Source: a virus | Taxonomy: Duplodnaviria; Caudoviricetes | Direction: 5' to 3' (one strand) | Length of the DNA stretch: 55,015 bases | Virus record (IMG/VR): IMGVR_UViG_3300046411_000570 | Location: 1-55,015 of that record | In this document: positions 1-43,625 of the stretch, in pieces | How positions within the stretch are numbered: the stretch's first letter is position 1 | How the letters are laid out: each line of letters starts with the position of its first letter | Translations under genes and position numbers: made by a program | Notes under the pieces: model-generated | The model's input: only the letters and a program-made list of their open reading frames with translations | Told to the model about the DNA's origin: nothing | Database searches by the model: none

Positions 1-208
1 TGAGACCTGGTTCTCCGCCTAATAGATTTATTCTACACTTATATTCTTTTAGATAATCTAAAGTATTTCTTAAAAAGTCCATATCTACCGTCAAGTTTCT
101 CATTTCAAGAGTATAACTTGTACAATAGTGGCAATTTTTATTACAAGACATAGACAGAAAGAAATCTATAGCTAAATAATTTTCTTGTATTTCTTTTAAT
201 GTTTTCAT
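1..208 (-). CDS. Radical SAM protein (N-terminal part, truncated by window edge)
   Basis: Not in ORF track. Manual translation MKTLKEIQENYLAIDFFLSMSCNKNCHYCTSY...INLLGGEPGL has CxxxCxxC and GGEP; ATG overlaps the stop of the upstream ORF (ATGA). Confidence 0.9.
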   Translation of the reverse strand, partial: MKTLKEIQENYLAIDFFLSMSCNKNCHYCTSYTLEMRNLTVDMDFLRNTLDYLKEYKCRINLLGGEPGL

Positions 209-492
209 TTTATCATTTTGTAAAAGAATTTATTAAACGCAATCTTTAGTTTTGTTTCATCATTAAATTGTACTTGTTCAAGGTACTCTGGTGTTTTATA
301 AATTTTCTCAATTATATAATCGTAAATATCCTCTGTCTTTTTGTTAACTAAAGTTTCATCAAACATATTATCACCAAATAGTTTTTTCATACTCTTAACA
401 AGTTCAATAGGACATTTGTTGGTAATGTTATTCATATTACCATTCTTGTCTATATAACTAAATTGTGTTAAAGATTCATTATGTTCTATCAT
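205..492 (-). CDS. Hypothetical protein
   Basis: 95-aa ORF with 4-nt overlaps to both neighbours. Confidence 0.75.
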   Translation of the reverse strand: MIEHNESLTQFSYIDKNGNMNNITNKCPIELVKSMKKLFGDNMFDETLVNKKTEDIYDYIIEKIYKTPEYLEQVQFNDETKLKIAFNKFFYKMIK

Positions 493-1547
493 ACTAATAT
501 TAATATAGTGTTTATAACTTTATCAAGTTCTTCTTTCTTCATATAAGGCGATAATGGCAATGTAAGTATTGTATCACATACCATTTTTGTTATAGTTGTA
601 TCATCTTTTCTATGTTCAATATTATCATACATTTTGTTTTCTGAAATAGGTTTATTATAATGTACTTTTGCATTTAATTTATTTTTAACTAAATCCCTAA
701 CTTCTTTTGTTTTAAACCTTACAACATATTTGTGATAGTTATGATTTACTTTTTCCCATTGTTGCATAGTTTCCGATTGAACAATTACAACATCTTTTAA
801 ATGTTCATCATAATACCTTGCGTTTGCCTGCCTTTTACTAATATATTCATTTAGTTTTTTTAATCTAAAATTAATAATCTCGGCATTGAACAACAACATT
901 TTTGAGTTATAACCAAGAATCTTGTGGTCGCCGTGTTTCCTCAAACGTTTAAATATTTCTGTATCGCCATCTGTCAGTATAGCTCCGCCTCCTGATATGC
1001 CTGATACAACTTTGTTATCGTTAAAGGATAAGGTACTAATATTTCCCTCTGAACCGGCTACAGCACCATTATAACTAGAACCTAAAGATTGGCAAGCGTC
1101 CTCAATAAAGTGTATGTTTTTCTCTTGACAAAATGTTTTGATTTTGCTAATATCAGACATATTACCAAATAAATGAGGATAGATTATTGCTTTTACTTTT
1201 GGAGAGTACATCTTTTGAATACTATCAAAAGACATATGATAAGTTAATAAATCAATATCACAAAATACAGGTTTAGCACCTACCATTGATATTACACTAG
1301 CAGTTGATATCCAAGAAAAGTTGGTTGTTAAAACCTCGTCTCCTTTTCCTATACCTAAACTTATTAATGAAAAATGTAATGCGTCTGTACCACTATTACA
1401 AGCTACTGCTTTTCTACCAACAACTTCTTCTATACTCTTTTCAAGAAACTCTACGTTAGTATCGTTTTCTTTTCTCATTACTCTATCAAAGAGTTTTAGA
1501 TATTGGTCTGTTTCTATTTCTTCGTATTCTCTAATCCAAGTGTTCAT
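489..1547 (-). CDS. DegT/DnrJ/EryC1/StrS PLP-dependent sugar aminotransferase
   Basis: Motifs NSGTDAL, GDEV, IEDACQSLG, SFxxxK, GGAILT, LTLPL; ATG at 1547 preferred over TTG at 1562. Confidence 0.92.
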   Translation of the reverse strand: MNTWIREYEEIETDQYLKLFDRVMRKENDTNVEFLEKSIEEVVGRKAVACNSGTDALHFSLISLGIGKGDEVLTTNFSWISTASVISMVGAKPVFCDIDLLTYHMSFDSIQKMYSPKVKAIIYPHLFGNMSDISKIKTFCQEKNIHFIEDACQSLGSSYNGAVAGSEGNISTLSFNDNKVVSGISGGGAILTDGDTEIFKRLRKHGDHKILGYNSKMLLFNAEIINFRLKKLNEYISKRQANARYYDEHLKDVVIVQSETMQQWEKVNHNYHKYVVRFKTKEVRDLVKNKLNAKVHYNKPISENKMYDNIEHRKDDTTITKMVCDTILTLPLSPYMKKEELDKVINTILILV

Positions 1548-2232
1548 AAAATTTACTCGCAATCAATTGATGACCTTTGGCATTTGGGTGCCTATCTTCA
1601 TCTGAAATATAATCATCATCTGTAAAAAAATCTTGCATATTCCAACCACCTAATGCAGGACAACCAAGATGACCTATGAAATCATCATTAATTAACTTTG
1701 CATAAGGATTTTTATAAATTATCTCATAATGTTTTTCTCTATCTAAAACTTTATCTCTTGCTTCTGGCCATACTTCACTACCTTTATGCCATCTAGCTGT
1801 TTCATATGAATTAATTATTTGTGCTTGTTTCAATGGTATCTTTAGTGATTTACAAATTTGTTGTAAACTATAAACGTATCTTAAATGTCTTTCTATAAAG
1901 TATTTGTTGTCACCATATTTGTCCCATTTTTCATTTCTATTAAGATACATTGTATCGCCGTTGCTAACAGCATAATCACTACGACAAGCTCTTGACCAAC
2001 CAGCTACAACCAATCCTATTTTATTTTTGTGTTCTAAAATTTTATCTAATAGTGATGAGTAAATAAATTCAGAACCAGCACCACTATATCCTAAATTCAT
2101 AGGTTCCATATCTAACTTCTTAGCTAGAAGTTCAGGCCATTTTGGCCAGTTGCAATCTATGTTTGGATGAAATATTGAGAAATATGTAGGGTCGGTATAA
2201 CTACATCCACTTGCTAATAATATCTTTTTCAT
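1531..2232 (-). CDS. SGNH/GDSL-like hydrolase or acyltransferase
   Basis: N-terminal GCSYT, NLGxSGAG, C-terminal DRHPNAKGH. Confidence 0.75.
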   Translation of the reverse strand: MKKILLASGCSYTDPTYFSIFHPNIDCNWPKWPELLAKKLDMEPMNLGYSGAGSEFIYSSLLDKILEHKNKIGLVVAGWSRACRSDYAVSNGDTMYLNRNEKWDKYGDNKYFIERHLRYVYSLQQICKSLKIPLKQAQIINSYETARWHKGSEVWPEARDKVLDREKHYEIIYKNPYAKLINDDFIGHLGCPALGGWNMQDFFTDDDYISDEDRHPNAKGHQLIASKFYEHLD

Positions 2233-3131
2233 TCTATACTTTCTATAAGTTTAACAAGTATATTTATATTGTCAAAATACATCTGAGCCGTAGGTACAGG
2301 TCTTTTAATATACACAGGACCGCCGTCTTTTATGTTTTTGTCTCTTAAATATAATACTTTTTTATCTAACCATTTACACTCTTGTATCAATCTAGGTGCT
2401 GGGTCAAAATAGTTTTTTGTGTAAGCATACTTGTCAAAAAGACCAAGTAAATTTTTAACTGGTGCATAGATGTGATTCATCTTATCATCTAAATATTTTT
2501 CACCATAATATGTTAATATACGATAAGAGCTTTGATAATCATTATCTCTGGAAGATAATATTCTTTTTTTTGCTTCTTTGTAATAAACTTCGTTTGTTCC
2601 TAAAAATAGATATTCAAACTTTTCATTACCTTGTATAACATCTTTGTAAATACCAAAGTTAATCATTTTTTCAAATTGTGTACCCACGCCTTTTGGGTAA
2701 ACATCATAATCGCATAAATCAAAAGTCTCTTTTGTGTGGAAGTATTCAAGAGCTTTTGGATATTCTTCAGGATGATTTTCTGAATATACAGATATCAATT
2801 TACCACCAAACAATAGGTGTAAAGAAAGTAATTGTTCTTTATCGTATCTATGTTTGTCAAGATATGGTAAGGTTATCATACTTCTACCCATAATCAAACT
2901 TATATCATTTGAATGAGGTATATAATTATCAAACCACACATTACCATAATCTTTACGGTCATTGTGATATTTTTCAACTAAAGAATTTATATAATCTTGT
3001 TGTGAAAAGTTAGGGTGAGTTATAATTACCAAATTAGTCTTAATACCTAGTAGATTTAAGCACCTTTGGTGTTCATAACTATACATAAGCAAACCATCGC
3101 CTGGTTTGGAGGAACATACAATATTAATCAT
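2229..3131 (-). CDS. Hypothetical protein (possibly glycosyltransferase-like)
   Basis: 300-aa ORF, first gene of the leftward operon; fold guess is weak. Confidence 0.7.
   Translation of the reverse strand: MINIVCSSKPGDGLLMYSYEHQRCLNLLGIKTNLVIITHPNFSQQDYINSLVEKYHNDRKDYGNVWFDNYIPHSNDISLIMGRSMITLPYLDKHRYDKEQLLSLHLLFGGKLISVYSENHPEEYPKALEYFHTKETFDLCDYDVYPKGVGTQFEKMINFGIYKDVIQGNEKFEYLFLGTNEVYYKEAKKRILSSRDNDYQSSYRILTYYGEKYLDDKMNHIYAPVKNLLGLFDKYAYTKNYFDPAPRLIQECKWLDKKVLYLRDKNIKDGGPVYIKRPVPTAQMYFDNINILVKLIESIE
2261..2268 (-). promoter_or_regulatory. T4-type late promoter
   Basis: TATAAATA on minus strand about 30 nt upstream of ATG 2232. Confidence 0.55.
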
Positions 3132-3147
3132 ATAAATATTTATATGA
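3128..3147. promoter_or_regulatory. Bidirectional overlapping late promoters in a perfect palindrome
   Basis: TCATATAAATATTTATATGA is its own reverse complement; TATAAATA at 3131-3138 (+) and 3144-3137 (-), each 5 nt before an ATG. Confidence 0.85.
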
Positions 3148-3761
3148 GTTATAATAGTATATTATCCTACGGTGACTTGATACCCTTGAATATAGAGTGT
3201 GAAGTTGGTAAGTTATTTAGCGAAATAGAAGGATTTAAATTCGCAAAATATAATCCTAGAAAAGACATACCTAGATATGGTCTTAGCATAACTAGTTTAG
3301 ATGGTTCTCTGAACGGAGTAGATTTAGATTCAATAAAAGAATATAATAAAGAGAACAATACAAACTATGATGAGTTATCTTTTTCCACATTTACAGACGT
3401 TTATCATTCTAGTCCAGAAATTAGAAAAATTGTAGAGCCCTTTAAAAATCACATAGGCAGGTCACATATATTAAATCTACCAGCAGGTGGTTATTTTCCA
3501 CCTCATAGAGATTTGCCGGTCTATACAGAGGAACAAAATAGTTTAAGAATATTAGTGCCTCTTAAAAAATGTAATCCACCTCATATGTATTTTATGTATG
3601 AAAATAAACCATTACATTTTGACCACGGAAGAGCATACTTTTTAAATACAAATAAATCGCATAATCTTTTTTCATTTAAAGATAGTTATATGATAGTGTT
3701 AAATGTAAAAACAGGCGAAGACGTTTACAAGATTATAGGAAATCATTTTCAGGCTTCATAA
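3144..3761 (+). CDS. Aspartyl/asparaginyl beta-hydroxylase-like 2OG-Fe(II) oxygenase
   Basis: LPAGGYFPPHRD (HxD), RILVPL, YFLNTNKSH; start moved from 3066 to ATG 3144. Confidence 0.8.
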   Translation: MSYNSILSYGDLIPLNIECEVGKLFSEIEGFKFAKYNPRKDIPRYGLSITSLDGSLNGVDLDSIKEYNKENNTNYDELSFSTFTDVYHSSPEIRKIVEPFKNHIGRSHILNLPAGGYFPPHRDLPVYTEEQNSLRILVPLKKCNPPHMYFMYENKPLHFDHGRAYFLNTNKSHNLFSFKDSYMIVLNVKTGEDVYKIIGNHFQAS

Positions 3762-3769
3762 ATAGGACT

Positions 3770-4426
3770 ATGGAATTAACAATAGCAATATTATTAGGTA
3801 TAGTGTGGTCTCAAATTATTTCACATTTGGGTGCCAGCATTTTATTACACAGGCATTATTGTCATAAACAATTTAAAGTGCCTGCTTGGTTTGAGGTAAT
3901 GGGTTTGAGTATGTTGATGATAGCTTGCATAAGAACACCGATAGGGTGGATTGCAAGTCACCGGATGCACCACACACATTCAGACGGACCCGAAGACCCT
4001 CACGCTTCAAAATACGTAGGTTTTTGGAAAGTATTATTTACGACTTGGGATATAAAAAAGATACCTACAAAATATGCAAAAGATTTATTTAAAAATCCTA
4101 GATTAGTATTTTGTCATAGACATTGGTTAAAAATATTAATAGCAGTATGGGTAATTAGTTTTCTAATTAGTCCTTACTTCTTTATAGGATTTGCATTAGT
4201 ACCTTTTATATTCGCAAAAATAGGATTTGGATTACTGAATACCATAGGACATAGAACACCAGGTGGTGCCAATGTTGCTTGGTTAAATTTGTTTATTGCA
4301 GGTGAAGGCTATCATAAAAATCATCACGAAAATTTTAAAAGAATTAGATTACATAAGTTTGACACAGGTGGTTGGCTAGCAGAGAGATTATTTAAAGATT
4401 ATGAACCAAAAAGAAAGACTACTTAA
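3770..4426 (+). CDS. Membrane fatty-acid (delta-9-type) desaturase
   Basis: Three His boxes HRHYCH, HRMHH, GEGYHKNHH plus DPH and hydrophobic segments. Confidence 0.92.
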   Translation: MELTIAILLGIVWSQIISHLGASILLHRHYCHKQFKVPAWFEVMGLSMLMIACIRTPIGWIASHRMHHTHSDGPEDPHASKYVGFWKVLFTTWDIKKIPTKYAKDLFKNPRLVFCHRHWLKILIAVWVISFLISPYFFIGFALVPFIFAKIGFGLLNTIGHRTPGGANVAWLNLFIAGEGYHKNHHENFKRIRLHKFDTGGWLAERLFKDYEPKRKTT

Positions 4427-5189
4427 ACAATCATTAGCTATTAGAACATTCCCTATTGCAAAAATAAAAGCAATATGTGATAAGTTCAAATTAGATAATC
4501 ATACAGAGGTAAAGCCGTTCTCTTCAAATATAACAGAGTGGCTAGAACCTGTAATTAATCTATCAGATTTTCCTTACTTATATCCAGCAAACGGTGTAAC
4601 CGAAGGCCTTAATTATTGGTATATGCAAGAAAACAGAAAAGTTTTTAGACATAAAGATGATTATGTATGGTTGCCAGAAAGTCATTCAGGTGATATAATA
4701 TATTTAAGTTGTCCTTCATCTATTGATGGTAACATTGTAGATATACCAACAACAATGCCAGTAGCTTTAGATATTGCATATGTTGGTTCTCTTTCAGAGA
4801 AAATAAAAATAGAAGTACCATACAATGTTGAAAAGGTATTTTTCTCATTAAGTAAATGTTTTGGACTACGAAATTATAGAATAGGATATTACTGGTCAAG
4901 AACGCCAGATAAACAACTTGAAAGATTAATAGGTTCGGCAAAATATTATAATTATCATTCAATGCAATTAGGTGAAAAAATAATAAAAGAAGTTAGCCCT
5001 TATGCAGTACATAATACTTTAAAAAAATATCAAGATAAGATATGCAGAGATTTAAACTTTAGTGCTTCAGATAGTGTGTGGTTAGCAACAACAGAAAACG
5101 AAGAATATAATAAATTTAAAAAGGGTAATGCAAACCGAATAAGTTTGTGTGATTTAATACAAGATGAATATAACAGGCGTATCATTTAG
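4401..5189 (+). CDS. Class I/II PLP-dependent aminotransferase/decarboxylase-like protein
   Basis: NGVTEGL, LDIAY, FSLSKCFGLRNYRIGY (PLP-lysine motif); shorter than cellular homologues. Confidence 0.8.
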   Translation: MNQKERLLKQSLAIRTFPIAKIKAICDKFKLDNHTEVKPFSSNITEWLEPVINLSDFPYLYPANGVTEGLNYWYMQENRKVFRHKDDYVWLPESHSGDIIYLSCPSSIDGNIVDIPTTMPVALDIAYVGSLSEKIKIEVPYNVEKVFFSLSKCFGLRNYRIGYYWSRTPDKQLERLIGSAKYYNYHSMQLGEKIIKEVSPYAVHNTLKKYQDKICRDLNFSASDSVWLATTENEEYNKFKKGNANRISLCDLIQDEYNRRII

Positions 5190-5742
5190 TTATAGTAATG
5201 ATTCAATGAACCATAGAGGTTTATTATTAATGAATCGTTATTTAAACTTTAAACATATTATTAAAATGAATCTACCTATTTGTAATTCAAATAAACCTGA
5301 CGGTAATATACCTATTTCAGTAGAAGATTTGGATAAAAAATTAAAAGATAGTGATGTTTTAGTATTTGCAATACCAGAATATACAGGTCATTATTCAGTA
5401 GGATTTAAAAATCTTATGGACTGGTTGGTTGTTAAAGCTTATTATAATGCAGACCTAGGTCAAAAGTATTCTATATCAAATAAACCTGTATATGTAATAA
5501 CGTTTACACCTGCCAAGAAAGGTGTAGGTGATAGACACTTTGATATGACAAAAGATATATTGACAAAACTAGGTAGTCAAGTAAAAGATATGTGGGCAAA
5601 AAACGATTGTTGGGAAAATTTAACTCCTGAAAACTATAAGTTTGTAGAAAAAGAATGTAAAAAAATATTAAAAAAAGATATGATAGATGAAGTAAGTGGT
5701 TGGCAACAAAAGTATGATGATTGGAATGATAAATGGAAGTAA
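5164..5742 (+). CDS. NAD(P)H-dependent FMN reductase
   Basis: DVLVFAIPEYTGHYSVGFKNLMDWL...NKPV. Confidence 0.85.
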   Translation: MNITGVSFSYSNDSMNHRGLLLMNRYLNFKHIIKMNLPICNSNKPDGNIPISVEDLDKKLKDSDVLVFAIPEYTGHYSVGFKNLMDWLVVKAYYNADLGQKYSISNKPVYVITFTPAKKGVGDRHFDMTKDILTKLGSQVKDMWAKNDCWENLTPENYKFVEKECKKILKKDMIDEVSGWQQKYDDWNDKWK

Positions 5743-6155
5743 AAGGATTATATTGGTTAAAAGATAATTATATTAAACCTTATGATATAGATGAGGGTAA
5801 AAGAATTATTATGTGTGGTGTTCCAGGTGCTTTTACAGAAAATTGTACTTATGAACATCTACCAGGTTTTGTTAGTAAACTAGATAAACTAAAAGAGTTA
5901 GGTATAGATAAGGTCGTATTTGTTTCAGTAAATGACGCTTATGTTATGTGGACTTGGAACAAAATGCACGGTCATAAAGATATTGATAGTGTATCAGACC
6001 CGATAGCAGAATTTGCTAAATCAAAAAAGAAAGACCTTGATTGGGGAAAAACTTTTGGCGTTAGAAGTTCAAGATATGCCTATCTATGGGAAAATGGCAA
6101 GATTGTAAAAGAATTTAAAGACCCTTATATTGATGGAGTGATAAAAGAATTATGA
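5733..6155 (+). CDS. Peroxiredoxin (Prx5-like)
   Basis: GVPGAFTENCTYEHLPGF, VSVNDAYVM, RSSRYA. Confidence 0.9.
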   Translation: MEVKGLYWLKDNYIKPYDIDEGKRIIMCGVPGAFTENCTYEHLPGFVSKLDKLKELGIDKVVFVSVNDAYVMWTWNKMHGHKDIDSVSDPIAEFAKSKKKDLDWGKTFGVRSSRYAYLWENGKIVKEFKDPYIDGVIKEL

Positions 6156-6808
6156 TACCAGGAATAGCAGAGTACGTAAATATAAAACCAGACTATGATA
6201 CTTTAAATAGATTGTATGTAGAAGTAAAGGCTACATCATCAAATACATTTGGTAAAACACCATTTAAAAGTTATTCATTAGAGGATAATAGAACAGGTGT
6301 GCCTACTGGTTACGAACAATTATTTGATTCTATATTATCAAAACATAAAGAAGTACATCCACATTATCAATTTCGTTCAACAGGTTTTAACACAGCAGAT
6401 AGTACAGAAAAGGATGTATTTGCTCATACAGATATTGATTTAGATACTGAACACCCGAATGGTTATAATGTTGTCATACCTATATTTGGAAACTCAAAAA
6501 TAATTTACTATGAAACTAAAGATGATGAAGTTTATTTACCTGAAAAGAATGCTCACGGTTATGCATATTATCACGAATTTAAAGCACAAAAAGAAATGGG
6601 TCAATATACACCAGAGTTTGAAAAGTTTTTAAGTGAAAGAGAGATTGGTCATATTGTAGTTGATAAACCAATACTAATACAAACTACTACAATGCATAGA
6701 GTAGTGGTGACAGAGGCACCTAGGTGTGCTTGGGTGACAAGATGGAATAATATTCCTAAAGATATAAGTTTTAGTCAATTCAAACAAAAGGTAGAAAATA
6801 TATTATGA
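6152..6808 (+). CDS. Putative 2OG-Fe(II)/cupin-fold oxygenase
   Basis: AHTD, NVVIPI, distal MHRV...PR pattern. Confidence 0.55.
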   Translation: MIPGIAEYVNIKPDYDTLNRLYVEVKATSSNTFGKTPFKSYSLEDNRTGVPTGYEQLFDSILSKHKEVHPHYQFRSTGFNTADSTEKDVFAHTDIDLDTEHPNGYNVVIPIFGNSKIIYYETKDDEVYLPEKNAHGYAYYHEFKAQKEMGQYTPEFEKFLSEREIGHIVVDKPILIQTTTMHRVVVTEAPRCAWVTRWNNIPKDISFSQFKQKVENIL

Positions 6809-7617
6809 TAAATCCAGAGAAGATAGATGTACAAATAAAAGAGCTATCAAAAGAACAATTAATAGATATATCAAAAGGTATACACAAACAAGGTGTAGCA
6901 GTATTTTACAATCAAAAACTAGATGAATCTGAATACATAAACACATTAAAAAAATTTGGTGAATGTGAATCACCAGATTTGTTTATGAATCCTAAAGAAC
7001 ATCCGGAAATATTTTTAGTCACGGGCAAGAGAGACAAAGACGGTAAAAAACTTGGTATGTTTGGCGATACAGAATTAGGCTGGCACTCAAATGGTAATTC
7101 ACGACACTTAATAGATAAAATATTAATTAGTTTATATTGTGTAAAAGAAGATATTAATACAACGTTAAGTGTTTGCAATACTCAAATGCCTTTCTATGAT
7201 ATGTCAGATGATGAAAAAGAATATTGGCGTTCAATTACAATTAGACTTAAATTTAAAAACAATACAATATATGATTTAGAAGAAGGCGACCCCGAGTTAG
7301 AGTTTATGAGTAAGAACAAAGGTAGTATTCGTAAACTAGTTGGTCAACATCCACATACTGGTTTAGAATACTTTTATTTTCCTTATCACTTTATCACGAA
7401 AGCTTGGGAAGGTAAGAAACAAATTGACGCTGAAGAAATGATTAAAAAATTAATGCCTAAAATATTTAAATCTCAATATCAATATCATCATATATTTAAA
7501 GAGGGTGATTTATTATTAATGGACCAATTTACAAGTTTACACCGTAGAACACCTGTAATGGATAATAATCGTTTACTATGGAGAATAGCTGCAGATTTTA
7601 ATAATGTCTATAAGTAA
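6805..7617 (+). CDS. TauD/TfdA-family dioxygenase
   Basis: GVAVFYNQ, LGWHSNG, HPHTG, GDLLLMDQFTSLHRR, RLLWR. Confidence 0.85.
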   Translation: MINPEKIDVQIKELSKEQLIDISKGIHKQGVAVFYNQKLDESEYINTLKKFGECESPDLFMNPKEHPEIFLVTGKRDKDGKKLGMFGDTELGWHSNGNSRHLIDKILISLYCVKEDINTTLSVCNTQMPFYDMSDDEKEYWRSITIRLKFKNNTIYDLEEGDPELEFMSKNKGSIRKLVGQHPHTGLEYFYFPYHFITKAWEGKKQIDAEEMIKKLMPKIFKSQYQYHHIFKEGDLLLMDQFTSLHRRTPVMDNNRLLWRIAADFNNVYK

Positions 7618-8221
7618 AAGAATACCTTGGCCTAAAATAACAACAAAGACAGGTAACGTGCCTTTGATGAAAGAGTATGCTATGCAAGATATGTGGTATC
7701 TTGATACACCAGAGGCTAAACCTATTTTTGAAAAACAAGCTGATATAATAATTGAAAATGAATATAAAGGTATAGTAGATGTTGGTTGCAGACACGGTCC
7801 GGTAAATGAAATCTTATATGAAAAAAATTATAAAGATTATCAGTATTATGGTTTTGACACTTCATTAGAACCTATTAATATAGCACAATACGAATGGGTT
7901 GGCAACCTTAATATTGAATATGCAGTAGGTGATTGGTCAAATTTAAAACCTGTTAGTTATAAAGTAGATTGTATTATTTTTAGTGGAGTTTTATTATATG
8001 AAAAAGAACATTATAATATGTTTACAGATATTATGAAATTCTATAATTGTAATAATGCTATAATACAAGAGCCTTATCATACTCAAAAACATTATGATGA
8101 AAGATTAAATTTAAAAACTATTACAAGAGATATGCAACAATATGATTTTTGGGAAGAACATATTATTGACGCAGAAATATTTTGTGGTAGAAGATTAGTA
8201 GCACACGCAAAATTATTATGA
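7604..8221 (+). CDS. Class I SAM-dependent methyltransferase
   Basis: IVDVGCRHG, YYGFD, GDW, DCIIFSGVL. Confidence 0.8.
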   Translation: MSISKRIPWPKITTKTGNVPLMKEYAMQDMWYLDTPEAKPIFEKQADIIIENEYKGIVDVGCRHGPVNEILYEKNYKDYQYYGFDTSLEPINIAQYEWVGNLNIEYAVGDWSNLKPVSYKVDCIIFSGVLLYEKEHYNMFTDIMKFYNCNNAIIQEPYHTQKHYDERLNLKTITRDMQQYDFWEEHIIDAEIFCGRRLVAHAKLL

Positions 8222-8802
8222 TTGTAAAAAGATATTCTGAAGACCCTAACAAATATTGGCCATTGATAGAAAAGTTTAGATTACAAACTTTTGATGAAGG
8301 TAATGATAGTTTAACTCGTAAAAAATATAATCCAGATAATGAAGATATTGAAACTTGGATGTGTTTTAAAGATGATAAGTTAATATCAATATCGGCAGCT
8401 GAAAAATCACATTACACAAATGACCCCGATATTGCAGTTAGAGTATGTCGTTATCACATTTTAAAAGAACATAGATTTACTCATTGTGGTTTAATTATGG
8501 CAGAGTATCAAATTAAATGGGCAAAAGAAAATAATTTTAAAATACTCTATATTACCCACGACATTAAAAATAAAGCGATAAATAATCTATATCAAAGAAA
8601 ACGAAAAATGACCGATAAGGCATTTAAAGATTATATAAAAGGAGAATGGTACACAAAATTACAATTAGAAAATAAGTTTTTATTTAAAACTGGTAAAATG
8701 TTGCAGTATGTTTATAGCATTAGATTACAAGATGACAATTTTAAATGGCAACCAAAATCTGATTACATTATAGAAAGAGAACATAATGGACAAATTAACT
8801 AA
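8218..8802 (+). CDS. Putative GNAT-like acyltransferase
   Basis: RVCRYHILKEHR...WAKENNFKILYIT...NKAINNLY resembles GNAT motifs A and B. Confidence 0.55.
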   Translation: MIVKRYSEDPNKYWPLIEKFRLQTFDEGNDSLTRKKYNPDNEDIETWMCFKDDKLISISAAEKSHYTNDPDIAVRVCRYHILKEHRFTHCGLIMAEYQIKWAKENNFKILYITHDIKNKAINNLYQRKRKMTDKAFKDYIKGEWYTKLQLENKFLFKTGKMLQYVYSIRLQDDNFKWQPKSDYIIEREHNGQIN

Positions 8803-9406
8803 ACATAAACTACCTAGTGTAGCAGACCTAAAACTTGATATAGATTTAGAAAAATTAAGAAATGCTACAAATACATTAGCAAATGATTTTAAAGATGTAA
8901 AATCAGCAAACCCTATGTTATGTGATAATCATATGGATTTAGTAAAAAGTGTATATGATAACTTTGAACAAATTAACTTAACAACACCTAGTGAAATATT
9001 ACCACACACTTTAAGTATTAAAGAACGATTAAAAAGAAAAGAAGAACACTTATATAATGTACCAACACCAGAATATACAGGTAGTTATTTTGAACATATT
9101 GTAAAACAATGTAAAGCACCAGCCAGTAGAATTAGAATTACAAAATTAGCACCAGGTAAGATGATACCTTTTCACGTAGATTATGATGTAAATTATGGTG
9201 TTAGATGTATTGTTCCTATATTTGGTGGTGAGAACGTAGTAAACTTATTTAAAAGAGATAAAGTTGAGGCTTATACTTTAAAAGACGGTACTGCTAATTT
9301 TTTAAATATTGGCTTTAAACACGCAGTAATTAATATGAGTAATAGACCAAGAATCGCCTTGATGTTTACTCTAAATGGTACAAAAGATATAGAAAAACTA
9401 TTATAA
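8786..9406 (+). CDS. Aspartyl/asparaginyl beta-hydroxylase-like 2OG-Fe(II) oxygenase
   Basis: RIRITKLAPGKMIPFHVD, LNIGFKHAVIN...RIALM. Confidence 0.82.
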   Translation: MDKLTKHKLPSVADLKLDIDLEKLRNATNTLANDFKDVKSANPMLCDNHMDLVKSVYDNFEQINLTTPSEILPHTLSIKERLKRKEEHLYNVPTPEYTGSYFEHIVKQCKAPASRIRITKLAPGKMIPFHVDYDVNYGVRCIVPIFGGENVVNLFKRDKVEAYTLKDGTANFLNIGFKHAVINMSNRPRIALMFTLNGTKDIEKLL

Positions 9407-9409
9407 ATA
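9402..9409 (+). promoter_or_regulatory. T4-type late promoter
   Basis: TATAAATA upstream of AAGGAG and ATG 9431. Confidence 0.75.
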
Positions 9410-9430
9410 GTATAAAGGAGAAAATGTGAT

Positions 9431-9640
9431 ATGATTACAATTGATGGAAAAGAATATGATGAGACAAAATTTAGTCCTGAATTACAAAATTACCTAGTAG
9501 TAAGACAAGAAATTCAGGTCAATGCGACTAGACATAAACTAGAGCTTGAAAAAATTGATGTTTTGACAAATCATTATAATGCCAAGATAGTAGAATTAAT
9601 AAAAAAAGAGACCCCAGCAGAGACTAAAGAGAAGAAATAG
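9431..9640 (+). CDS. Small hypothetical phage protein
   Basis: 69 aa, strong SD, MITIDGKEY followed by coiled coil. Confidence 0.8.
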   Translation: MITIDGKEYDETKFSPELQNYLVVRQEIQVNATRHKLELEKIDVLTNHYNAKIVELIKKETPAETKEKK

Positions 9641-9976
9641 ATGGCCGCAATAGCTAACTTAACAATAGACCAAGGCGCAACTTTTACCTCGGATGTGACG
9701 GTAAAAGACGCCAATGGCAATGCATTTAACTTGACAGGTTATACGGCAAGAGCGAAGTTAGCAAAAGGATATCAATCCACGCAAACTAGACAAGATTTCA
9801 CAACTACAATTGCTTCAGACGCAGCTACAGGTACGGTGACATTATCACTTACAGCTGCTCAAACAACAGCCCTAGAAGACACTAGATACGTATATGACCT
9901 AGAGATTCAGACAGGAGATGTTGTAACCAGAGTAATTGAAGGAATTATCTCGGTACGTCCACAGGTTTCAACTTAA
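9641..9976 (+). CDS. Putative virion structural/adaptor protein
   Basis: IDQGATF...NLTGYTARA...GTVTLSLT...YVYDLE beta-rich pattern typical of phage baseplate/fibre adaptors. Confidence 0.65.
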   Translation: MAAIANLTIDQGATFTSDVTVKDANGNAFNLTGYTARAKLAKGYQSTQTRQDFTTTIASDAATGTVTLSLTAAQTTALEDTRYVYDLEIQTGDVVTRVIEGIISVRPQVST

Positions 9977-9993
9977 TTCTAACTCGTTTTCGT

Positions 9994-10001
9994 TATAAAT
10001 A
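9994..10001 (+). promoter_or_regulatory. T4-type late promoter
   Basis: Intergenic TATAAATA before GGGAG and ATG 10022. Confidence 0.8.
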
Positions 10002-10021
10002 TAGAAAAGAGAGGGAGATTT

Positions 10022-10270
10022 ATGCCTGATATTACAGCAAAAATCAACGTAAATACAAGTGCCGGTCCACAAAAAGTAGCAGTAACCTTGCCCTCAGCTC
10101 AGGCTGCCGGGAACAGCACTTTACAATTAAAATTATTAGGCGATGTTGACACTACTGATTTAAATGATGGTTCATTATTACAATACAGAGCTTCAGACGG
10201 TAAGTTTGTAACCAGAACGGAGATAGTAACCACAACCGGAACGCTCTTGTTTAATTGTGGTAACTTTTAA
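10022..10270 (+). CDS. Small putative fibre-associated structural protein
   Basis: LxxLGDVD...DGSLLQY motif and C-terminal NCGNF. Confidence 0.65.
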   Translation: MPDITAKINVNTSAGPQKVAVTLPSAQAAGNSTLQLKLLGDVDTTDLNDGSLLQYRASDGKFVTRTEIVTTTGTLLFNCGNF

Positions 10271-10279
10271 GGATAAAAA

Positions 10280-11998
10280 ATGGCAACTATAATTCAGATA
10301 AAAAGAAGTAATGCAGCTTCAGCTCCAAGTACACTAAAACAAGGAGAAATGGGTCTTACGTTCGGTACAGGTACTCAAGCAAATTTAGGTGATAGACTTT
10401 TCATAGGAACAGGTTCAGTAGATTCAAATGGTGACGCAACTAGTATTGACGTTATCGGCGGTAAATATTTTGCAGATTTAAATGACCACGCTCACGGTAC
10501 ATTAACTGCTAACTCAACAATAATCGTTGACTCAAACAAAGCAATAGATGAGTTAATCGTAGGTAATTCAGCTACTAACGGTGGTCAAATTAAGATAAAT
10601 GAAGGAACAAATAATGGTTCTAATTTCGTTGCTTTAAAATCTGCCAATAATTTAGGTGCAACAACAATATTCACATTGCCTGTCGGAGACGGTACAGCAG
10701 GACAATTTTTAAAAACAGATGGTTCGGGACAATTAGGTTTTGAAACAATCTTTTCAAATATAGATTTAGCGGGTGATACTGGTACAGACATTTACAATAC
10801 TAATGAGACTTTGACATTTACAGGTGGTACTGGTTTAGATTCAGCAATCACAAATAACAATGTTACCTTTAATATTACTGCTTCAGGTGTGGACACTACT
10901 CAAATAGCTGATAACGCAGTAACCAATGCTAAGTTATCAACAAATGGTCAAACTACTTTAGGTTCATCTACATTAACTTTAGGTTCTACAACAACAGATA
11001 TTGCTGGTTTACAATCTTTAGTAGTTGATGATATTACAATTAATGGCCAAACACTTTCAACAGGAAGTGCAAACAAAGATATTAATATAAATCCACACGG
11101 CACAGGTACGGTAAAAGTTCCTAGTGGTTATGAAGATAGAAGTGGTTTTGATAATCAATCATTAGCAAACAAAGCTTACGTTGACCAAGTTGCTCAAGGT
11201 TTAGATACTAAACCATCTTGTAGAGCAGCTACAACAGCAAACTTATCAGCAACATATAATAACGGAAGTTCAGGTGTTGGTGCAACTTTGACAGCAAGTT
11301 CAAATGGTGCAATTGTTATTGATGGTGTATCTGCTAGTGTAAACGATAGAATTTTAGTTAAAAATCAAACAGCAGGTGCTCAAAACGGTATCTATGTTGT
11401 TTCAACGCAAGGTGATGGTTCAACTGCTTTTGTATTAACAAGAGCAACTCCTGAAGACCAACCTGCTGAATTATCTGGTGGTGCTTTCGTATTCGTAGAA
11501 GAAGGTACGGTAGGTGCTAACAACGGTTATGTATTTACACACACAGGTGCTCCAACTTTCGGAACAACTTCTTTAGATGTTGTACAATTTTCAGGTGCAG
11601 GTTCAGTAATTGCAGGTGCAGCTTTAACTAAATCAGGCAATACTTTAGATGTTGCAGTAGATGATAGTTCAGTAGAAGTTGCTACAGACGCATTAAGAGT
11701 TAAGGCTTTAGGTATTACTAACTCAATGTTAGCAGGTAGTATTGCAACAAGTAAATTAAATAATCCTACTATTTTCTTTACAGATGAAACTTCAACTCAA
11801 GGTCAAGTATCTTTAGAAGGTACTTTAGAATTTTTAGCAGGTGAAGGATTAAATACCGTTGCAAACGGAAATAAACTAACTATTTCGGGAGAATTAGCTA
11901 GCAGCTCAAATATTGGTGTTGCTAAATTTAATGCAAATAATTTTGACGTGACTTCAGGTGATGTTGAGATTAGCACTATTGATGGAGGGTCTTTCTAG
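10280..11998 (+). CDS. Fibre-like virion structural protein
   Basis: G/T/S/N-rich 572 aa; N-terminal IQIKRS..P..L..GE, ANKAYVD, DRILVKNQ...NGIY, C-terminal IDGGSF. Confidence 0.8.
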   Translation: MATIIQIKRSNAASAPSTLKQGEMGLTFGTGTQANLGDRLFIGTGSVDSNGDATSIDVIGGKYFADLNDHAHGTLTANSTIIVDSNKAIDELIVGNSATNGGQIKINEGTNNGSNFVALKSANNLGATTIFTLPVGDGTAGQFLKTDGSGQLGFETIFSNIDLAGDTGTDIYNTNETLTFTGGTGLDSAITNNNVTFNITASGVDTTQIADNAVTNAKLSTNGQTTLGSSTLTLGSTTTDIAGLQSLVVDDITINGQTLSTGSANKDININPHGTGTVKVPSGYEDRSGFDNQSLANKAYVDQVAQGLDTKPSCRAATTANLSATYNNGSSGVGATLTASSNGAIVIDGVSASVNDRILVKNQTAGAQNGIYVVSTQGDGSTAFVLTRATPEDQPAELSGGAFVFVEEGTVGANNGYVFTHTGAPTFGTTSLDVVQFSGAGSVIAGAALTKSGNTLDVAVDDSSVEVATDALRVKALGITNSMLAGSIATSKLNNPTIFFTDETSTQGQVSLEGTLEFLAGEGLNTVANGNKLTISGELASSSNIGVAKFNANNFDVTSGDVEISTIDGGSF

Positions 11999-12234
11999 TG
12001 TTCAGTATATTACAAAAGTGGTTTGATAGTGTTTTAAAATCTTATGATAAAAAAACAATAAATTACTTATCAGGTAAAAAGAAACCAGCTGTAAGAGTTG
12101 GTGATTTACAACATAAAACAAAAAAAGAATTAGAAGATATCGGTAGAAAAATCGGTATTGAGTTAGATAGAAGACTAACAAAAGATAAACTAATAAACAA
12201 AATTAAATATAACGTAAAGAATAGAAAAAGATAA
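11998..12234 (+). CDS. Small basic protein with Rho-N/HeH-like motif
   Basis: LQHKTKKELEDIGRKIGIELDRRLTKDKLI; GTG start overlapping upstream TAG, GGAGG SD. Confidence 0.6.
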   Translation: MFSILQKWFDSVLKSYDKKTINYLSGKKKPAVRVGDLQHKTKKELEDIGRKIGIELDRRLTKDKLINKIKYNVKNRKR

Positions 12235-12236
12235 TT

Positions 12237-12668
12237 ATGTCAACCGTAATTAAACCAAAACGTTCATTCACACCACTCGCAATACCGGCTTCTAATGTAA
12301 TGGAAATCGGCGAATTGGCTATGAATGCCTCTGATGGTAAGTTTTATACTAAATTACAAAACGGTACGGTTAAAGAATTAGGTGGTGCAGGTTCGGTTAT
12401 TTTGCAAGACGTTACCACTAACGGTAATATTTCTACAAATGACATTATTCTTAACGGTTCAAATCTAGTATTTGAAGGACTTTTAGAAAACGCTTTTGAA
12501 ACTACTTTAAAGGTAGTTGAGCCAACTGGTGATAGAATTGTAAGATTGCCTAACGTATCAGGTGATGTAATAACAACTGGTAATTTAACTAAAGACGGTA
12601 CTGCTACTGGTGACCCATTAGCTGCCGAGGGTGACGCAGTTGCTTTTGCTATTGCTTTAGGAGGTTAA
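12237..12668 (+). CDS. Putative fibre-associated structural protein
   Basis: IKPKRS..P...GELAMN.SDGKFY N-terminus; ends AFAIALGG. Confidence 0.7.
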   Translation: MSTVIKPKRSFTPLAIPASNVMEIGELAMNASDGKFYTKLQNGTVKELGGAGSVILQDVTTNGNISTNDIILNGSNLVFEGLLENAFETTLKVVEPTGDRIVRLPNVSGDVITTGNLTKDGTATGDPLAAEGDAVAFAIALGG

Positions 12669-12674
12669 TAGATT

Positions 12675-13004
12675 ATGGCTAGTTCGTTTATAAATGCAGG
12701 TGCTCAATTAACTATAACAGACGCTTCAGGTGCTAATATATACACTTGCCCAGCAAGTACAAAAGCAGTTATTCACGCTTGTATGGTATCAAACTTAAAT
12801 AGTTCTGGTACTTCTAAAGGCACAATTAAGATTACGGTTGACGGTGGTTCTACGTTTAGAACGGTATTAAAAGACGCAGAGATACCACCTAATGACACTT
12901 TACAGATGGATAAACCTCTGAATCTAGAGGCTGGTGACATTATTAGAATATATGGTACGAGTACAAATATGGAATGTTTTTTATCAATTTTGGAATTAAC
13001 GTAA
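12675..13004 (+). CDS. Putative structural protein
   Basis: IYTCPA...LNLEAGDIIRI beta-sandwich pattern; strong SD. Confidence 0.65.
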   Translation: MASSFINAGAQLTITDASGANIYTCPASTKAVIHACMVSNLNSSGTSKGTIKITVDGGSTFRTVLKDAEIPPNDTLQMDKPLNLEAGDIIRIYGTSTNMECFLSILELT

Positions 13005-13012
13005 TAAAGTTT

Positions 13013-13020
13013 TATAAATA
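13013..13020 (+). promoter_or_regulatory. T4-type late promoter
   Basis: Intergenic TATAAATA. Confidence 0.8.
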
Positions 13021-13048
13021 TAGATAGAATTTAAGTTAGGAGATATTA

Positions 13049-13495
13049 ATGGCACTAGTAGTAAATAAAGTTTACAACGCTAAAGACGCAAATGGTAAAA
13101 CGATTACTAGTGAATATAGTTTCCACGGATTAAGTCGTGATGGAGATGGTCTCTTAACATATACTAAAACTAATTGGTATAGTGGTGATTCAATTAATAT
13201 GGACAATGGTGAAGGAACAGCTTACAATTCAGTAGGTGAGTTTCAAAAAAATGAGTTAACGTATGCTAGCGGTTCTTATTCAGTAGGACATAATATTAAT
13301 GATATACCTATTGATTATAGTTCAACAACTGACCCTAGACAAGCGAATACTATAAACAGAAAATATGAGCAACACGTATTTGATGAAAACAAAGCGACTT
13401 ACTTTATTAATGCTGACGGTTATTTGGTATTGAGAATTGGAAATGAATATACATACGGTGCTAAAGATGGTGCAACAGGTAACTGGACCACTTAA
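13049..13495 (+). CDS. Hypothetical (likely structural) protein
   Basis: 148 aa, AGGAG SD, downstream of late promoter. Confidence 0.75.
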   Translation: MALVVNKVYNAKDANGKTITSEYSFHGLSRDGDGLLTYTKTNWYSGDSINMDNGEGTAYNSVGEFQKNELTYASGSYSVGHNINDIPIDYSSTTDPRQANTINRKYEQHVFDENKATYFINADGYLVLRIGNEYTYGAKDGATGNWTT

Positions 13496-13517
13496 TAAGG
13501 AAATATAGGAAAAAACA

Positions 13518-14480
13518 ATGGCAGATTTTGTACTAGGTAGATTAAAGTTTCACTTCAAGGGTGCTTGGACTACTGGCACGGCTTATATCAAAGATGATGT
13601 ACTTACCTATGGTGGTAATGCTTTCGTCTGTAAAGTCAATCACACAGCAAACGCAGATTTTTATGTAGATTTAAACCACGCAACTGCTAAATGGGCTAAA
13701 ATGGCCGGCGGTTTTGAGTATAAAGGAAATTGGGCGGCAACAACTCTTTACAAAGTTGACGATATCGTAACCTACGGTGGTTCAACATACAGATGTGTCA
13801 CAGGACATACATCACAAGCAGATTTATATGACGATACTTCAAAATGGCAAACATTTGCCGCTGGTTTGGCTTGGAGAGGTTCTTGGGCAACATCAACAGC
13901 TTACAGAAATGATGACATTGTAAAATACGGTGCAAACACATATCTATGTACAACTCAACACACATCTTCAGGTACAACATTAGACGAAAGTAAATTTACT
14001 TTATTTGTATCAGGACTAGAATTTGAAAATTCTTGGTCATCTTCAACTTTATACCAATTAGGCGATATTGTTACCTACGGTGGTTATAACTACGTTGCTG
14101 AAAGAGCAAACAATAACGTTATACCTTACAACAATGCTTCAGATTGGAAATTATTTACAACAGGATTTACTAACACAGGTACTTGGTCAAACTCAACAGC
14201 ATATAAAACTGGTGATACCGTAAACCACGGTGGTCATTATTATGTGGCTAAAATTGATGGAACAAACCAAGAGCCAACAGGTACAACTAACTCATATTGG
14301 GATTTAGTTGTAGAAGGATTATATTGGAGAAACAATTGGGCAACATCTACTGCTTACAAAATTGGTGACGCAGTTGGTTATGGTGCTTCTTCTTATAGAG
14401 CAAAAACAAATCACACTTCATCAGCTTCTAATAGACCAGATGTTTCAGGTCAAACATCTTGGGATTTACTTGCAGAAGGA
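13518..14480 (+). repeat. Six tandem ~50-aa protein repeats (CBM5/12-like)
   Basis: FKGAW.., YKGNW.., WRGSW.., FENSW.., NTGTW.., WRNNW.. units; divergent at DNA level. Confidence 0.8.
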
Positions 14481-17219: not shown

Positions 17220-17222
17220 AGG

Positions 17223-17230
17223 TATAAATA
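17223..17230 (+). promoter_or_regulatory. T4-type late promoter
   Basis: Intergenic TATAAATA 9 nt before ATG 17240. Confidence 0.75.
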
Positions 17231-17239
17231 GGATAGAAA

Positions 17240-29521: not shown

Positions 29522-29528
29522 GTGACTT

Positions 29529-43612: not shown

Positions 43613-43620
43613 TATAAATA
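43613..43620 (+). promoter_or_regulatory. T4-type late promoter (leaderless geometry)
   Basis: TATAAATA 5 nt before ATG 43626. Confidence 0.8.
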
Positions 43621-43625
43621 GTAGT

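Follow-up and report, generated by a model that had tools for sequence, protein, structure and literature searches.

The window analysed here, the whole 55,015-nucleotide (nt) stretch of IMG/VR record IMGVR_UViG_3300046411_000570, opens with a dense run of tailoring-type enzyme genes, which raises the question of whether these genes serve one pathway and, if so, on what that pathway acts. This 55-kb metagenomic contig comes from a T4-like pelagimyophage, and the host of the phage is the ocean bacterium SAR11. Its nearest relative is Pelagibacter phage Mosig EXVC030M (MT647606), with 93% identity in the major capsid protein (76% for the OM43 phage Melnitz and 73% for HTVC008M). Fifteen open reading frames (ORFs) occupy positions 2-9406 and fall into two divergent arms, a minus arm of five genes (2-3131) and a plus arm of ten (3144-9406). 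The gene set of the plus arm is inherited and moved as a unit. We see about an even chance that this arm represents a mobile tailoring cassette, rich in oxygenases, of which the window holds one copy and which would act as a single late pathway on an amine-bearing, probably lipid-linked substrate.

The original prediction, made from the sequence before any comparison, had described one late-expressed island of fifteen contiguous, mostly overlapping ORFs beside the fibre genes, forming one pathway with its own redox support. The fifteen ORFs are all there, neighbouring genes within the arms overlap by 4-32 nt at 12 of 13 junctions (at the remaining one, 3761/3770, 8 nt separate them), and fibre-type genes begin at 9431; the fifteen ORFs nevertheless form two divergent units, not one run. 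That the plus arm works as one pathway is well supported, because its ten genes stay linked through reshuffling across diverged phages, overlap one another, have been fused and occur as diverged copies in bacteria. The same claim is unsupported for all fifteen, since only 2-6 of the 16 well-flanked genotypes (defined below) have minus-arm genes alongside the cassette. The start of g06 is taken as ATG 3144, rather than the TTG 3066 of the ORF listing, and the plus-arm cassette then reads as follows.

3144-3761, plus strand: g06, small iron- and 2-oxoglutarate-dependent (Fe/2OG) beta-hydroxylase-like cupin (Cpz10-like), head of the plus arm (PF05118, E 0.01)
3770-4426, plus strand: g07, membrane di-iron desaturase-like protein of the SCD/DesC type (Pfam FA_desaturase, 41 bits against a cut-off of 29.7)
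4401-5189, plus strand: g08, short (262 amino acids, aa) fold-type-I pyridoxal phosphate (PLP) enzyme, HisC/CobD-like (S-x-S-K152, D124)
5164-5742, plus strand: g09, NADPH-dependent flavin mononucleotide (FMN) reductase-like flavoprotein (Pfam FMN_red, 1.5e-13)
5733-6155, plus strand: g10, Prx5-type peroxiredoxin (Pfam Redoxin, 5.6e-19; phrog_2281, 1e-24; PGAFTENCT motif)
6152-6808, plus strand: g11, candidate cupin-type oxygenase (H92-x-D94...H182 in the alignment)
6805-7617, plus strand: g12, TauD/TfdA-family Fe/2OG oxygenase with H94-S-N96 replacing H-x-D (Pfam TauD, 4.3e-20)
7604-8221, plus strand: g13, class I S-adenosylmethionine (SAM) methyltransferase (Methyltransf_25, 30.1 bits against 27)
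8218-8802, plus strand: g14, GNAT-fold acyltransferase (model with a predicted local distance difference test score, pLDDT, of 92.4; Acetyltransf_1 E 0.0084, below gathering)
8786-9406, plus strand: g15, small Fe/2OG beta-hydroxylase (PF05118), last cassette gene (Asp_Arg_Hydrox, 30.8 bits against 22.6)

Linkage across phages was traced from the TauD gene, through which 47 IMG/VR loci were retrieved; with Mosig these made 48 loci and 30 genotypes. All window proteins were mapped onto the loci and Mosig, and all ORFs were then clustered. Sixteen of the 30 genotypes were well flanked, with at least 4.5 kb upstream and at least 3.5 kb downstream of TauD, and the following counts refer to them. 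The desaturase, the PLP enzyme and the methyltransferase are present in all 16 and g15 in 15, followed by the FMN reductase and the GNAT (13 each), g11 (11), g06 (9) and the peroxiredoxin (8). Outside the cassette, g05 is found in six genotypes, DegT in two and the fibre-assembly gene in nine, and fibre adjacency is therefore not a property of the cassette itself. The desaturase-PLP-TauD order is almost always preserved. Two to four TauD paralogues are present in many relatives, and in four distant lineages (L034, L042, L044 and L046) the remaining gene order is shuffled and the set stays together. Synteny across relatives had been proposed as a check on the original prediction, and the plus-arm set does hold together in this way even where its order is lost. 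In L042 and L043 the FMN reductase and the class I methyltransferase form one 427-aa protein (L043:10360-11643). Features of this kind typically mark genes that depend on one another, and they hold for the plus arm alone. Next to the cassette, several loci (L005, L034, L043 and, in the bacterial genome G001 described below, L050) also carry tandem proteins of 150-200 aa, up to five per locus, that have an H-x-D...H motif and no Pfam match; these paralogues are probably further cupin-type oxygenases.

The set is also found outside phages. When the TauD profile was run against bacterial genome bins, only three contigs of metagenome-assembled genomes were matched, of which one, an 8.6-kb contig in a 0.5-Mb 'Paceibacter' bin, looks like a binned phage fragment and was rejected as a cellular copy. 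Contig C101 of genome G001 (118 kb, labelled Bacteriovoracaceae) carries aroA/B/C, AcrB, an outer-membrane efflux protein, glutamate dehydrogenase and an L,D-transpeptidase, and is a true piece of bacterial chromosome. Within ~23 kb of it (~87.8-111 kb; L050 and L064) lie homologues of the desaturase (58% identical), the PLP enzyme, g06, g15 and TauD (58%), together with homologues of the FMN reductase, g11 and the methyltransferase, with an epimerase nearby and radical SAM genes alongside. Contig C34 of genome G052 (349 kb) holds cassette-like genes at 25-47% identity in a region adjoining tuf (~153-164 kb; L070 and L071), comprising three TauD, two PF05118 (AspH), PLP, GNAT-SET and two desaturase genes, and surrounded by seven radical SAM genes (one of them B12-binding), a PP-loop ATPase and a VanZ-like gene. 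The GNAT-SET gene joins a g14-like GNAT to a SET methyltransferase domain in a protein of 334 aa (L070:13992-14996). Given the low identity in G052, the set is old and not just a recent phage fragment. Both genomes belong to one bacterial family, in which matches occur in only 2 of the 151 sampled genomes. No virion genes were found among the Pfam-annotated ORFs at the bacterial loci, where many ORFs carry no annotation.

These results bear directly on whether there is a shared pathway at all, or whether independent auxiliary genes (an antioxidant, a membrane-fluidity gene, unrelated oxygenases) merely hitch-hike together in a hypervariable region. The island falls within the host recognition cluster (HRC), which is hypervariable and bounded by the neck gene gp14, whose region in the window is 28715-30350. 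The 3' side of the island continues with the fibre-type genes and then with neck, sheath, tube, portal, capsid and replication genes, and the G+C content of the island (0.26-0.32) falls below the values in the structural genes (mostly 0.33-0.41). The main text of Zaragoza-Solas et al. 2020 (PMC7029224) describes the HRC of pelagimyophages as hypervariable, located in the structural region and ending at gp14, and as combining fibre genes with lipopolysaccharide (LPS)-type and radical SAM genes, for which a role in surface alteration against co-infection was suggested. Such a setting, the higher AT content of the island and the coming and going of the peroxiredoxin, g06 and g11 would all suit a collection of unrelated genes. 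Desaturases, moreover, are reported from cyanophages as stand-alone genes. Nevertheless, the core partners are retained in 13-16 of the 16 genotypes despite reshuffling, stop and start codons overlap, two gene fusions have arisen independently, and the same set recurs at 25-47% identity in a bacterial chromosome. Mere hitch-hiking therefore appears very improbable to us, and we return to the plus arm as one pathway to ask what its enzymes might do.

Seven labels in the island reach the Pfam gathering score or exceed it (DegT, FA_desaturase, FMN_red, Redoxin, TauD, Methyltransf_25 and, for g15, Asp_Arg_Hydrox). Structure prediction for each ORF was another check proposed with the original prediction, and for two further genes it confirmed by fold the label given, namely the PLP enzyme (g08) and the GNAT (g14). 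NCBIfam returned no match for g02, g04, g05, g06, g08, g11 and g15, and PHROGs none for most cassette genes. No Pfam family of a scaffold-forming core enzyme (polyketide synthase, nonribosomal peptide synthetase, terpene synthase or similar) was found among the 15 island proteins.

Hydrophobic membrane segments occur in g07 only among the island proteins (residues 3-26, 43-61 and 119-159). Its histidine boxes, HRHYCH, HRMHH and HKNHH, align with HRLWSH and HRAHH of the acyl-CoA desaturase 4zyo, to which g07 aligns at E 0.014. With 218 aa, g07 is shorter than solved desaturases (318-339 aa), and desaturase activity is predicted; the SCD/DesC fold family also includes hydroxylases and ketolases. 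In g08, S-x-S-K152 and D124 are invariant across 11 aligned sequences. A profile of g08 matched the solved structure of HisC (1h1c) at 0.0045 with the PLP lysine aligned, and its model (pLDDT 82.9) matched 2f8j in Foldseek (E 1.7e-9, template modelling score 0.55). The methyltransferase g13 has NCBIfam matches to Tam and UbiE below the cut-off. The model of g14 gives generic GNAT matches from E 5e-7 (8iyo), and the sole NCBIfam match of g14 is sub-threshold (E 0.003), to an anthranilate synthase.

The two small beta-hydroxylases at the ends of the arm are related. Although g06 scores 16.1 bits against a PF05118 cut-off of 22.6, it shares a BLAST cluster with g15, and both have H-x-D...H and two arginines in common; in g15 this motif is H130-x-D132...H179. 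A joint g06/g15 profile run against solved structures had Cpz10 (7v4f) as its best match, at E 1.7e-10 over ~160 residues, followed by proline cis-4-hydroxylase at 3.8e-6, and the human AspH chain was absent among its matches at E up to 1. Cpz10 and proline cis-4-hydroxylase are small-molecule enzymes, the latter hydroxylating free proline. According to PMC9814697, Cpz10 is the Fe/2OG beta-hydroxylase of the caprazamycin gene cluster and acts on an aminoacyl-nucleoside intermediate. Its size is similar (182 aa, against 205-206 aa for g06 and g15), with similarity at the family level only, and its cluster likewise uses several enzymes, among them a TauD-type oxygenase and PLP enzymes; a nucleoside-antibiotic-like pathway was nonetheless rejected, as only the enzyme classes match and no nucleoside-forming step was identified in the window. 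For g11, no sequence match was found in Pfam or the PDB, and its profile matched only Trp-tRNA synthetase among solved structures, which we judged spurious. The Atlas leads for g11 score 0.92-0.95 to viral clusters, some of which carry PF05118 or PF13640.

The TauD-like enzyme g12 matches PF02668 with 73.2 bits against a cut-off of 27 over residues 8-261, and its best solved match in the PDB is ScoE, whose substrate is an N-substituted amino fatty acid; NCBIfam matches to PtlD and ScoE lie below the cut-off. Aligned against the WHaD motif of ScoE, the site of g12 reads H94-S-N96...H246. Asparagine replaces the carboxylate of H-x-D/E (W-H-x-N) in all 63 distinct cassette TauD sequences, and the distal histidine and the three arginines that follow it (R247, R248 and R260) are invariant, the arginines being candidates for the residue that would bind the 2-oxoglutarate carboxylate. 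A search of 1.84 billion representatives showed that this branch is a small family, in which 567 proteins match at E up to 1e-3, 156 still match at 1e-10 and 24 do so at 1e-30. Among the best 150 representatives of the wider family, 106 are full length, of which 70 have HxN, 27 HxD and nine a different pattern, with the HxD cases mixed in among the top matches. Because HxN and HxD are distributed and interleaved in this way, the asparagine is probably a substitute for the carboxylate ligand and not a sign of inactive enzymes. A TauD branch with asparagine in place of the iron-binding aspartate is a result of interest on its own.

A PLP enzyme that handles amines, alongside a GNAT, a methyltransferase, four soluble iron oxygenases and a membrane acyl enzyme, is most in keeping with a small, amine-bearing and probably acyl- or lipid-linked substrate. 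In the proposed pathway, late transcription would begin at the palindromic divergent promoter (3129-3146) and at the box at 3757, and the enzymes would work on this substrate, not on virion proteins, in the infected SAR11 cell, both in its cytoplasm and at its inner membrane. The HisC-like PLP enzyme could set or move the amine, which the GNAT would acylate and the methyltransferase methylate, while the SCD-like enzyme, the two Cpz10-like beta-hydroxylases, the HxD cupin and the TauD-like HxN enzyme would desaturate or hydroxylate the substrate. The FMN reductase might supply electrons, and the peroxiredoxin might clear peroxide from uncoupled turnover. The likely outcome would be an altered envelope lipid or surface conjugate late in infection.

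The original prediction had named virion proteins or the host envelope as the target of the modification, and between these two the evidence leans away from virion proteins. Hydroxylation, methylation or acylation of virion proteins before assembly, chiefly of the neighbouring fibres, would account for the position of the cassette directly upstream of the fibre genes, here and in 9 of the 16 genotypes, and for neighbours of tail-fibre, baseplate or virion-structural type in L041, L034 and L017 and one with a tropism-determinant N-terminal domain in L043. Late-type boxes are present, PF05118 is named for a protein hydroxylase, the best structural match of the GNAT is a protein acetyltransferase, and in G052 the GNAT is fused to a SET domain. 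However, the other seven genotypes have no fibre-assembly gene nearby, and virion proteins are less likely because of four observations: the bacterial chromosomal copies, which have no virion gene among the Pfam-annotated ORFs (many ORFs there being unannotated); the solved relatives of g06 and g15, which act on small molecules and do not include human AspH; the PLP enzyme and the membrane desaturase, which form part of the invariant core (16 of 16) and have no obvious role on proteins; and the lack of an epidermal growth factor (EGF)-type domain in the nine adjacent structural proteins. We thus regard a pathway devoted to virion proteins as decidedly doubtful.

A different substrate is suggested by the other half of the island. 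The minus arm contains the following genes.

2-208, minus strand: g01, radical SAM protein that runs off the contig end, with its N-terminal 69 aa present (CX3CX2C motif CNKNCHYC)
205-492, minus strand: g02, 95-aa protein of no credible family (homologues in Mosig and a few loci)
489-1562, minus strand: g03, DegT-type sugar or inositol aminotransferase, likely starting at ATG 1547 (Pfam DegT_DnrJ_EryC1, 2.5e-78)
1531-2232, minus strand: g04, SGNH/GDSL-like hydrolase or acyltransferase (Lipase_GDSL_2 2.4e-5, 25.3 bits against 32.9; GCS and DxxH motifs)
2229-3131, minus strand: g05, 300-aa protein, possibly a GT-B glycosyltransferase, as a lead only (Atlas feature search)

The match of g01 to Pfam Radical_SAM is at E 8.7e-4 (19.9 bits against a gathering score of 29.5), and g01 is 82-91% identical to the corresponding genes in those relatives that have it. 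The solved relatives of g03 are headed by PDB 7b0d (2.3e-59), followed by QdtB, WbpE and perosamine synthetase, with NCBIfam LegC and PseC below the cut-off. Searches of Pfam, PHROG and NCBIfam gave no match for g05, whose Atlas feature scores reach 0.98 for a viral cluster with the automatic name GT1 and 0.91 for clusters with PF00534. The minus arm is a separate, variable module, and its predicted contents point to amino-sugar work, given the aminotransferase, the radical SAM and SGNH proteins and the glycosyltransferase lead, together with the carbamoyltransferase, GT8 and epimerase genes in relatives.

Both arms might then tailor one sugar, with the cassette modifying a nucleotide-sugar or glycan that is made and transferred by the minus arm, so that conversion of the O-chain or capsule serotype blocks superinfection. 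The sugar aminotransferase g03, the glycosyltransferase lead for g05 and the shared palindromic divergent promoter region that connects the arms speak for this possibility, as do the GT8, epimerase/dehydratase and carbamoyltransferase genes beside the cassette in relatives (and the epimerase by the G001 copy); surface alteration is also what the main text of Zaragoza-Solas 2020 (PMC7029224) proposes for the region. On the other hand, minus-arm genes occur with the cassette in only two (DegT) to six (g05) of the 16 genotypes, sugar tailoring does not usually involve a membrane acyl desaturase-like enzyme, and a Pfam scan found no sugar-activating or flippase gene in the part of the island within the window. 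We consider a joint sugar pathway unlikely.

Radical SAM genes raise yet another possibility, that the cassette matures a ribosomally synthesised and post-translationally modified peptide (RiPP), possibly a lipopeptide, with the hydroxylases, the methyltransferase, the GNAT and the radical SAM enzymes acting on a precursor. In phages and bacteria alike, the cassette repeatedly has radical SAM/SPASM genes as neighbours, with a B12-binding one and a PP-loop ATPase in G052, the weak NCBIfam matches of g01 include peptide maturases, and the GNAT is fused to a SET domain. SPASM radical SAM enzymes, however, act on sugars too. No conserved precursor-like small gene was found among those inspected, namely the 95-aa and 69-99-aa families, g02, g18 and the tandem 150-200-aa paralogues. 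The 95-aa and 69-72-aa neighbours resemble ordinary small proteins, and the paralogues bear H-x-D...H motifs and hence are enzymes. Nor was a leader-peptide-binding or protease gene recognised in the island or in the loci of relatives. A RiPP-like product seems to us quite improbable.

The preferred reading also includes timing, for which the following elements are relevant.

2261-2268, minus strand: TATAAATA box, 28 nt before the start of g04 and inside g05 (same position in 6 of 8 SGNH-gene homologues)
3129-3146, both strands: divergent start region CAT-ATAAATATTTAT-ATG, a palindrome with TATAAATA on each strand, 5 nt from each ATG
3757-3764, plus strand: CATAAATA box, 5 nt before the ATG of g07 ([G/C]ATAAATA-N5-ATG, shared with relatives)
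9402-9409, plus strand: TATAAATA box over the stop codon of g15, at the start of the fibre module and the right cassette border (exact match)
3129-3146 (both strands), 3758-3772 (plus strand) and 43614-43628 (plus strand): ATAAATA-N5-ATG sites, also found in L007, L017, L024, L041 and L045
46741-47259, plus strand: gp55-type late sigma factor gene (phrog_234 'late sigma transcription factor', E 9.6e-64)

Late-type boxes had been predicted at 2261, 3131/3144 and 3757 and were found there, as exact TATAAATA at 2261-2268 (minus strand), 3131-3138 (plus) and 3137-3144 (minus) and as CATAAATA at 3757-3764 (plus). The start codons of g05 and g06 lie 12 nt apart around the palindrome, and palindromic double boxes precede the g06 homologue also in Mosig, L004, L011 and L023. 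The arrangement [G/C]ATAAATA-N5-ATG before the desaturase gene recurs in L001, L004, L005, L011, L023 and L025, which makes seven cases with the window. The other 11 of the 14 TATAAATA in the window all belong to the plus strand and occupy gaps between genes, at a distance of 5-97 nt from the structural genes that they precede (9402-43620). In relatives, TATAAATA was counted within 70 nt upstream of each gene. It precedes the 82-aa fibre-module gene in 26 of 26 cases and the g16-like gene in 12 of 14, against 31 of 354 other genes, and it is never found upstream of inner cassette genes (0/278), be it TauD (0/88), the FMN reductase (0/43), the GNAT (0/42), the PLP enzyme (0/41), g11 (0/37) or the peroxiredoxin (0/27). 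The co-directional gene run in which the cassette lies begins with a TATAAATA box in 8 of the 12 phage lineages that are not truncated, and the bacterial copy lacks one.

The spacing of these boxes is also unusual. ATAAATA-N5-ATG occurs four times in the window against 0.74 expected, a number that none of 100 shuffles reached, and the gap is exactly 5 nt in 26 of the 105 cases of TATAAATA before a gene in relatives, in a set of loci that was not dereplicated. T4-type late transcription units combine gp55 with a TATAAATA box. If the T4 spacing applies, transcription would start on the A of the ATG and yield leaderless late mRNAs, which would be notable in pelagimyophages as these encode ribosomal protein S21. 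The boxes are real, conserved and placed like operon heads, and the phage encodes the factor to read them. Late expression of the cassette is plausible, given that the arms have conserved boxes at their heads and none in their interior and that a gp55 homologue is present. Late promoters are thus plain in these phages, contrary to the main text of PMC7029224, which reports a failure to detect any in pelagimyophages.

Other sources of evidence add little on timing. Contigs of the oligo-dT RNA libraries X1 and X2 cover all 30 bins of positions 1-20000, with DNA carry-over possible. Contigs of the metatranscriptome X7, depleted of ribosomal RNA, cover parts from 9264 on and leave the cassette uncovered, a lack of cover that is uninformative on level or timing. 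No infection transcriptome of a pelagimyophage was found in the literature. A scan for sigma-70 promoters and terminators gave 98 promoter-like sites against 75.1 expected, none convincingly placed, and terminator-like matches that all fall within genes; it was set aside as uninformative in AT-rich DNA.

Several points weigh against a single late pathway acting on an amine-bearing, probably lipid-linked substrate. The loci were fetched through TauD, so that linkage is seen from the TauD side only, and the peroxiredoxin, g06 and g11 are dispensable (8-11 of 16 genotypes). Four of the island labels (g01, g04, g06 and g11) consist of sub-threshold scores and motifs, and the chemistry of a TauD-like enzyme that lacks the canonical carboxylate ligand is uncertain. 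The bacterial copies lie in islands, with Rha regulators and a recombinase fragment beside the G001 copy, and could themselves be phage-derived cargo, considering also that only 2 of 151 genomes have them. The many radical SAM genes of the cellular clusters, with their PP-loop ATPase and SET domain, are as compatible with a peptide or protein substrate as with a lipid, and keep such a substrate in play. Timing is read solely from sequence boxes, the window as a whole has no more TATAAATA than chance would give (14, with 11.3 expected), and an exact run-head box is missing in 4 of the 12 phage lineages, one of which (L017) has its sole box inside the run and three of which have none.

How far the cassette was already known can be judged from Mosig, in which the same ten plus-arm genes stand in the same order (Mosig_00081-00072), with 59-91% protein identity and the same fibre genes after them. 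At the nucleotide level, positions 3121-9500 are 79.5% identical to Mosig, and positions 3-3200 are 72% identical, in five pieces. The divergent arm of Mosig (00082-00093) likewise has a DegT aminotransferase and radical SAM genes, with a palindromic double TATAAATA between the arms, but the intergenic gap there is 35 nt instead of 12 nt and the arm is longer than that of the window, containing a nitroreductase, three 'MoaA-like' radical SAM genes, a carbamoyltransferase and a methyltransferase. The Mosig record annotates the genes of the block one by one, and a text term search of the Mosig genome announcement and isolation paper did not find their names. Likewise, PMC7029224, to the extent of its main text, describes the HRC without mention of an oxygenase cassette; 'oxygenase' and 'aminotransferase' are absent from that text, and 'desaturase' and 'hydroxylase' appear there only in relation to the freshwater group and a core protein list. 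Two of its supplement files gave no match for cassette gene terms, and others (possibly tables S4 and S5) may list protein clusters.

Among lipid-modifying systems, the enzymes for ornithine lipids and lipid A offer a parallel. OlsB is GNAT-type, OlsC and LpxO are PF05118-type, OlsE is a di-iron membrane hydroxylase and OlsG a methyltransferase. These are the same enzyme classes as in the cassette, and they act on an amino-acid head group carried on acyl chains, a likeness at the level of class; NCBIfam gave no match for g06, g11 and g15 and none relevant for g14. Unlike the Ols pathway, the cassette has no O-acyltransferase, and its PLP enzyme, TauD paralogues and FMN reductase have no Ols counterpart. 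SAR11 itself makes ornithine lipids when phosphate-starved. One could imagine that a hydroxylated, N-methylated and N-acylated aminolipid (ornithine-lipid-like) or lipo-amino-acid is made late in the SAR11 envelope, through an asparagine-ligand TauD shared with predatory bacteria, and changes the surface that co-varying fibres read, so that progeny would not be lost on debris and rivals would be excluded; this more specific picture is speculative, and we give it a low probability.

Comparison with other marine phages sets the cassette apart in its organisation. Lipid desaturases were reportedly listed by Roitman et al. in 2017 among the auxiliary genes of marine cyanomyophages, which are T4-like and, as in the window, have variable regions with a Delta9-type desaturase and many Fe/2OG oxygenases. 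Those auxiliary genes have been treated singly, whereas the window cassette is a conserved, partly fused and translationally packed set. As in T4-type late units, the window has TATAAATA before structural genes and at the heads of both arms, as well as a gp55 homologue; unlike in those units, several boxes of the window end 5 nt before the ATG, which would leave no leader or ribosome-binding site.

Few biological entities in the sea are as abundant as SAR11 and its phages. If our interpretation is correct, the phage would encode a pathway rather than a single auxiliary gene, and a ten-gene, five-oxygenase pathway that is exchanged as a unit and also resides in bacterial chromosomes would represent new virus-driven chemistry in the surface ocean. 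Among the isolates in the phage collection, a close TauD homologue was found only in Mosig (that of P-HM2 is 21.6% identical), and neither HTVC008M nor Melnitz, which the collection includes, had a listed match. The cassette lends itself to direct testing, since the cultured Mosig has it and the cultured relatives HTVC008M and Melnitz showed no TauD homologue.

Some features of the rest of the window also deserve mention. The large fibre-type proteins that follow the island (13518-17219, 17240-20407, 20426-24007 and 24493-26730, all plus strand) combine CBM_5_12 modules with RCC1-like beta-propeller repeats, and the 1233-aa fibre-type protein has four stretches of CBM_5_12 carbohydrate-binding modules. 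Contigs of RNA libraries X1 and X2 connect position 16332 to 19830 with 33 other letters between, which suggests a population variant in which ~3.5 kb of fibre genes are replaced. A lone 2OG-Fe(II) oxygenase (PF13759; 48302-48994, plus strand) lies away from the cassette, between SbcD-like and SbcC-like nuclease genes. Just 5' of the neck genes, a heme oxygenase and a ferredoxin-dependent bilin reductase (phrog label 'ferredoxin oxidoreductase') are adjacent (27407-28009 and 27915-28679, plus strand). Bilin-making gene pairs are already known from marine phages, and this one is found in a phage of a non-photosynthetic host.

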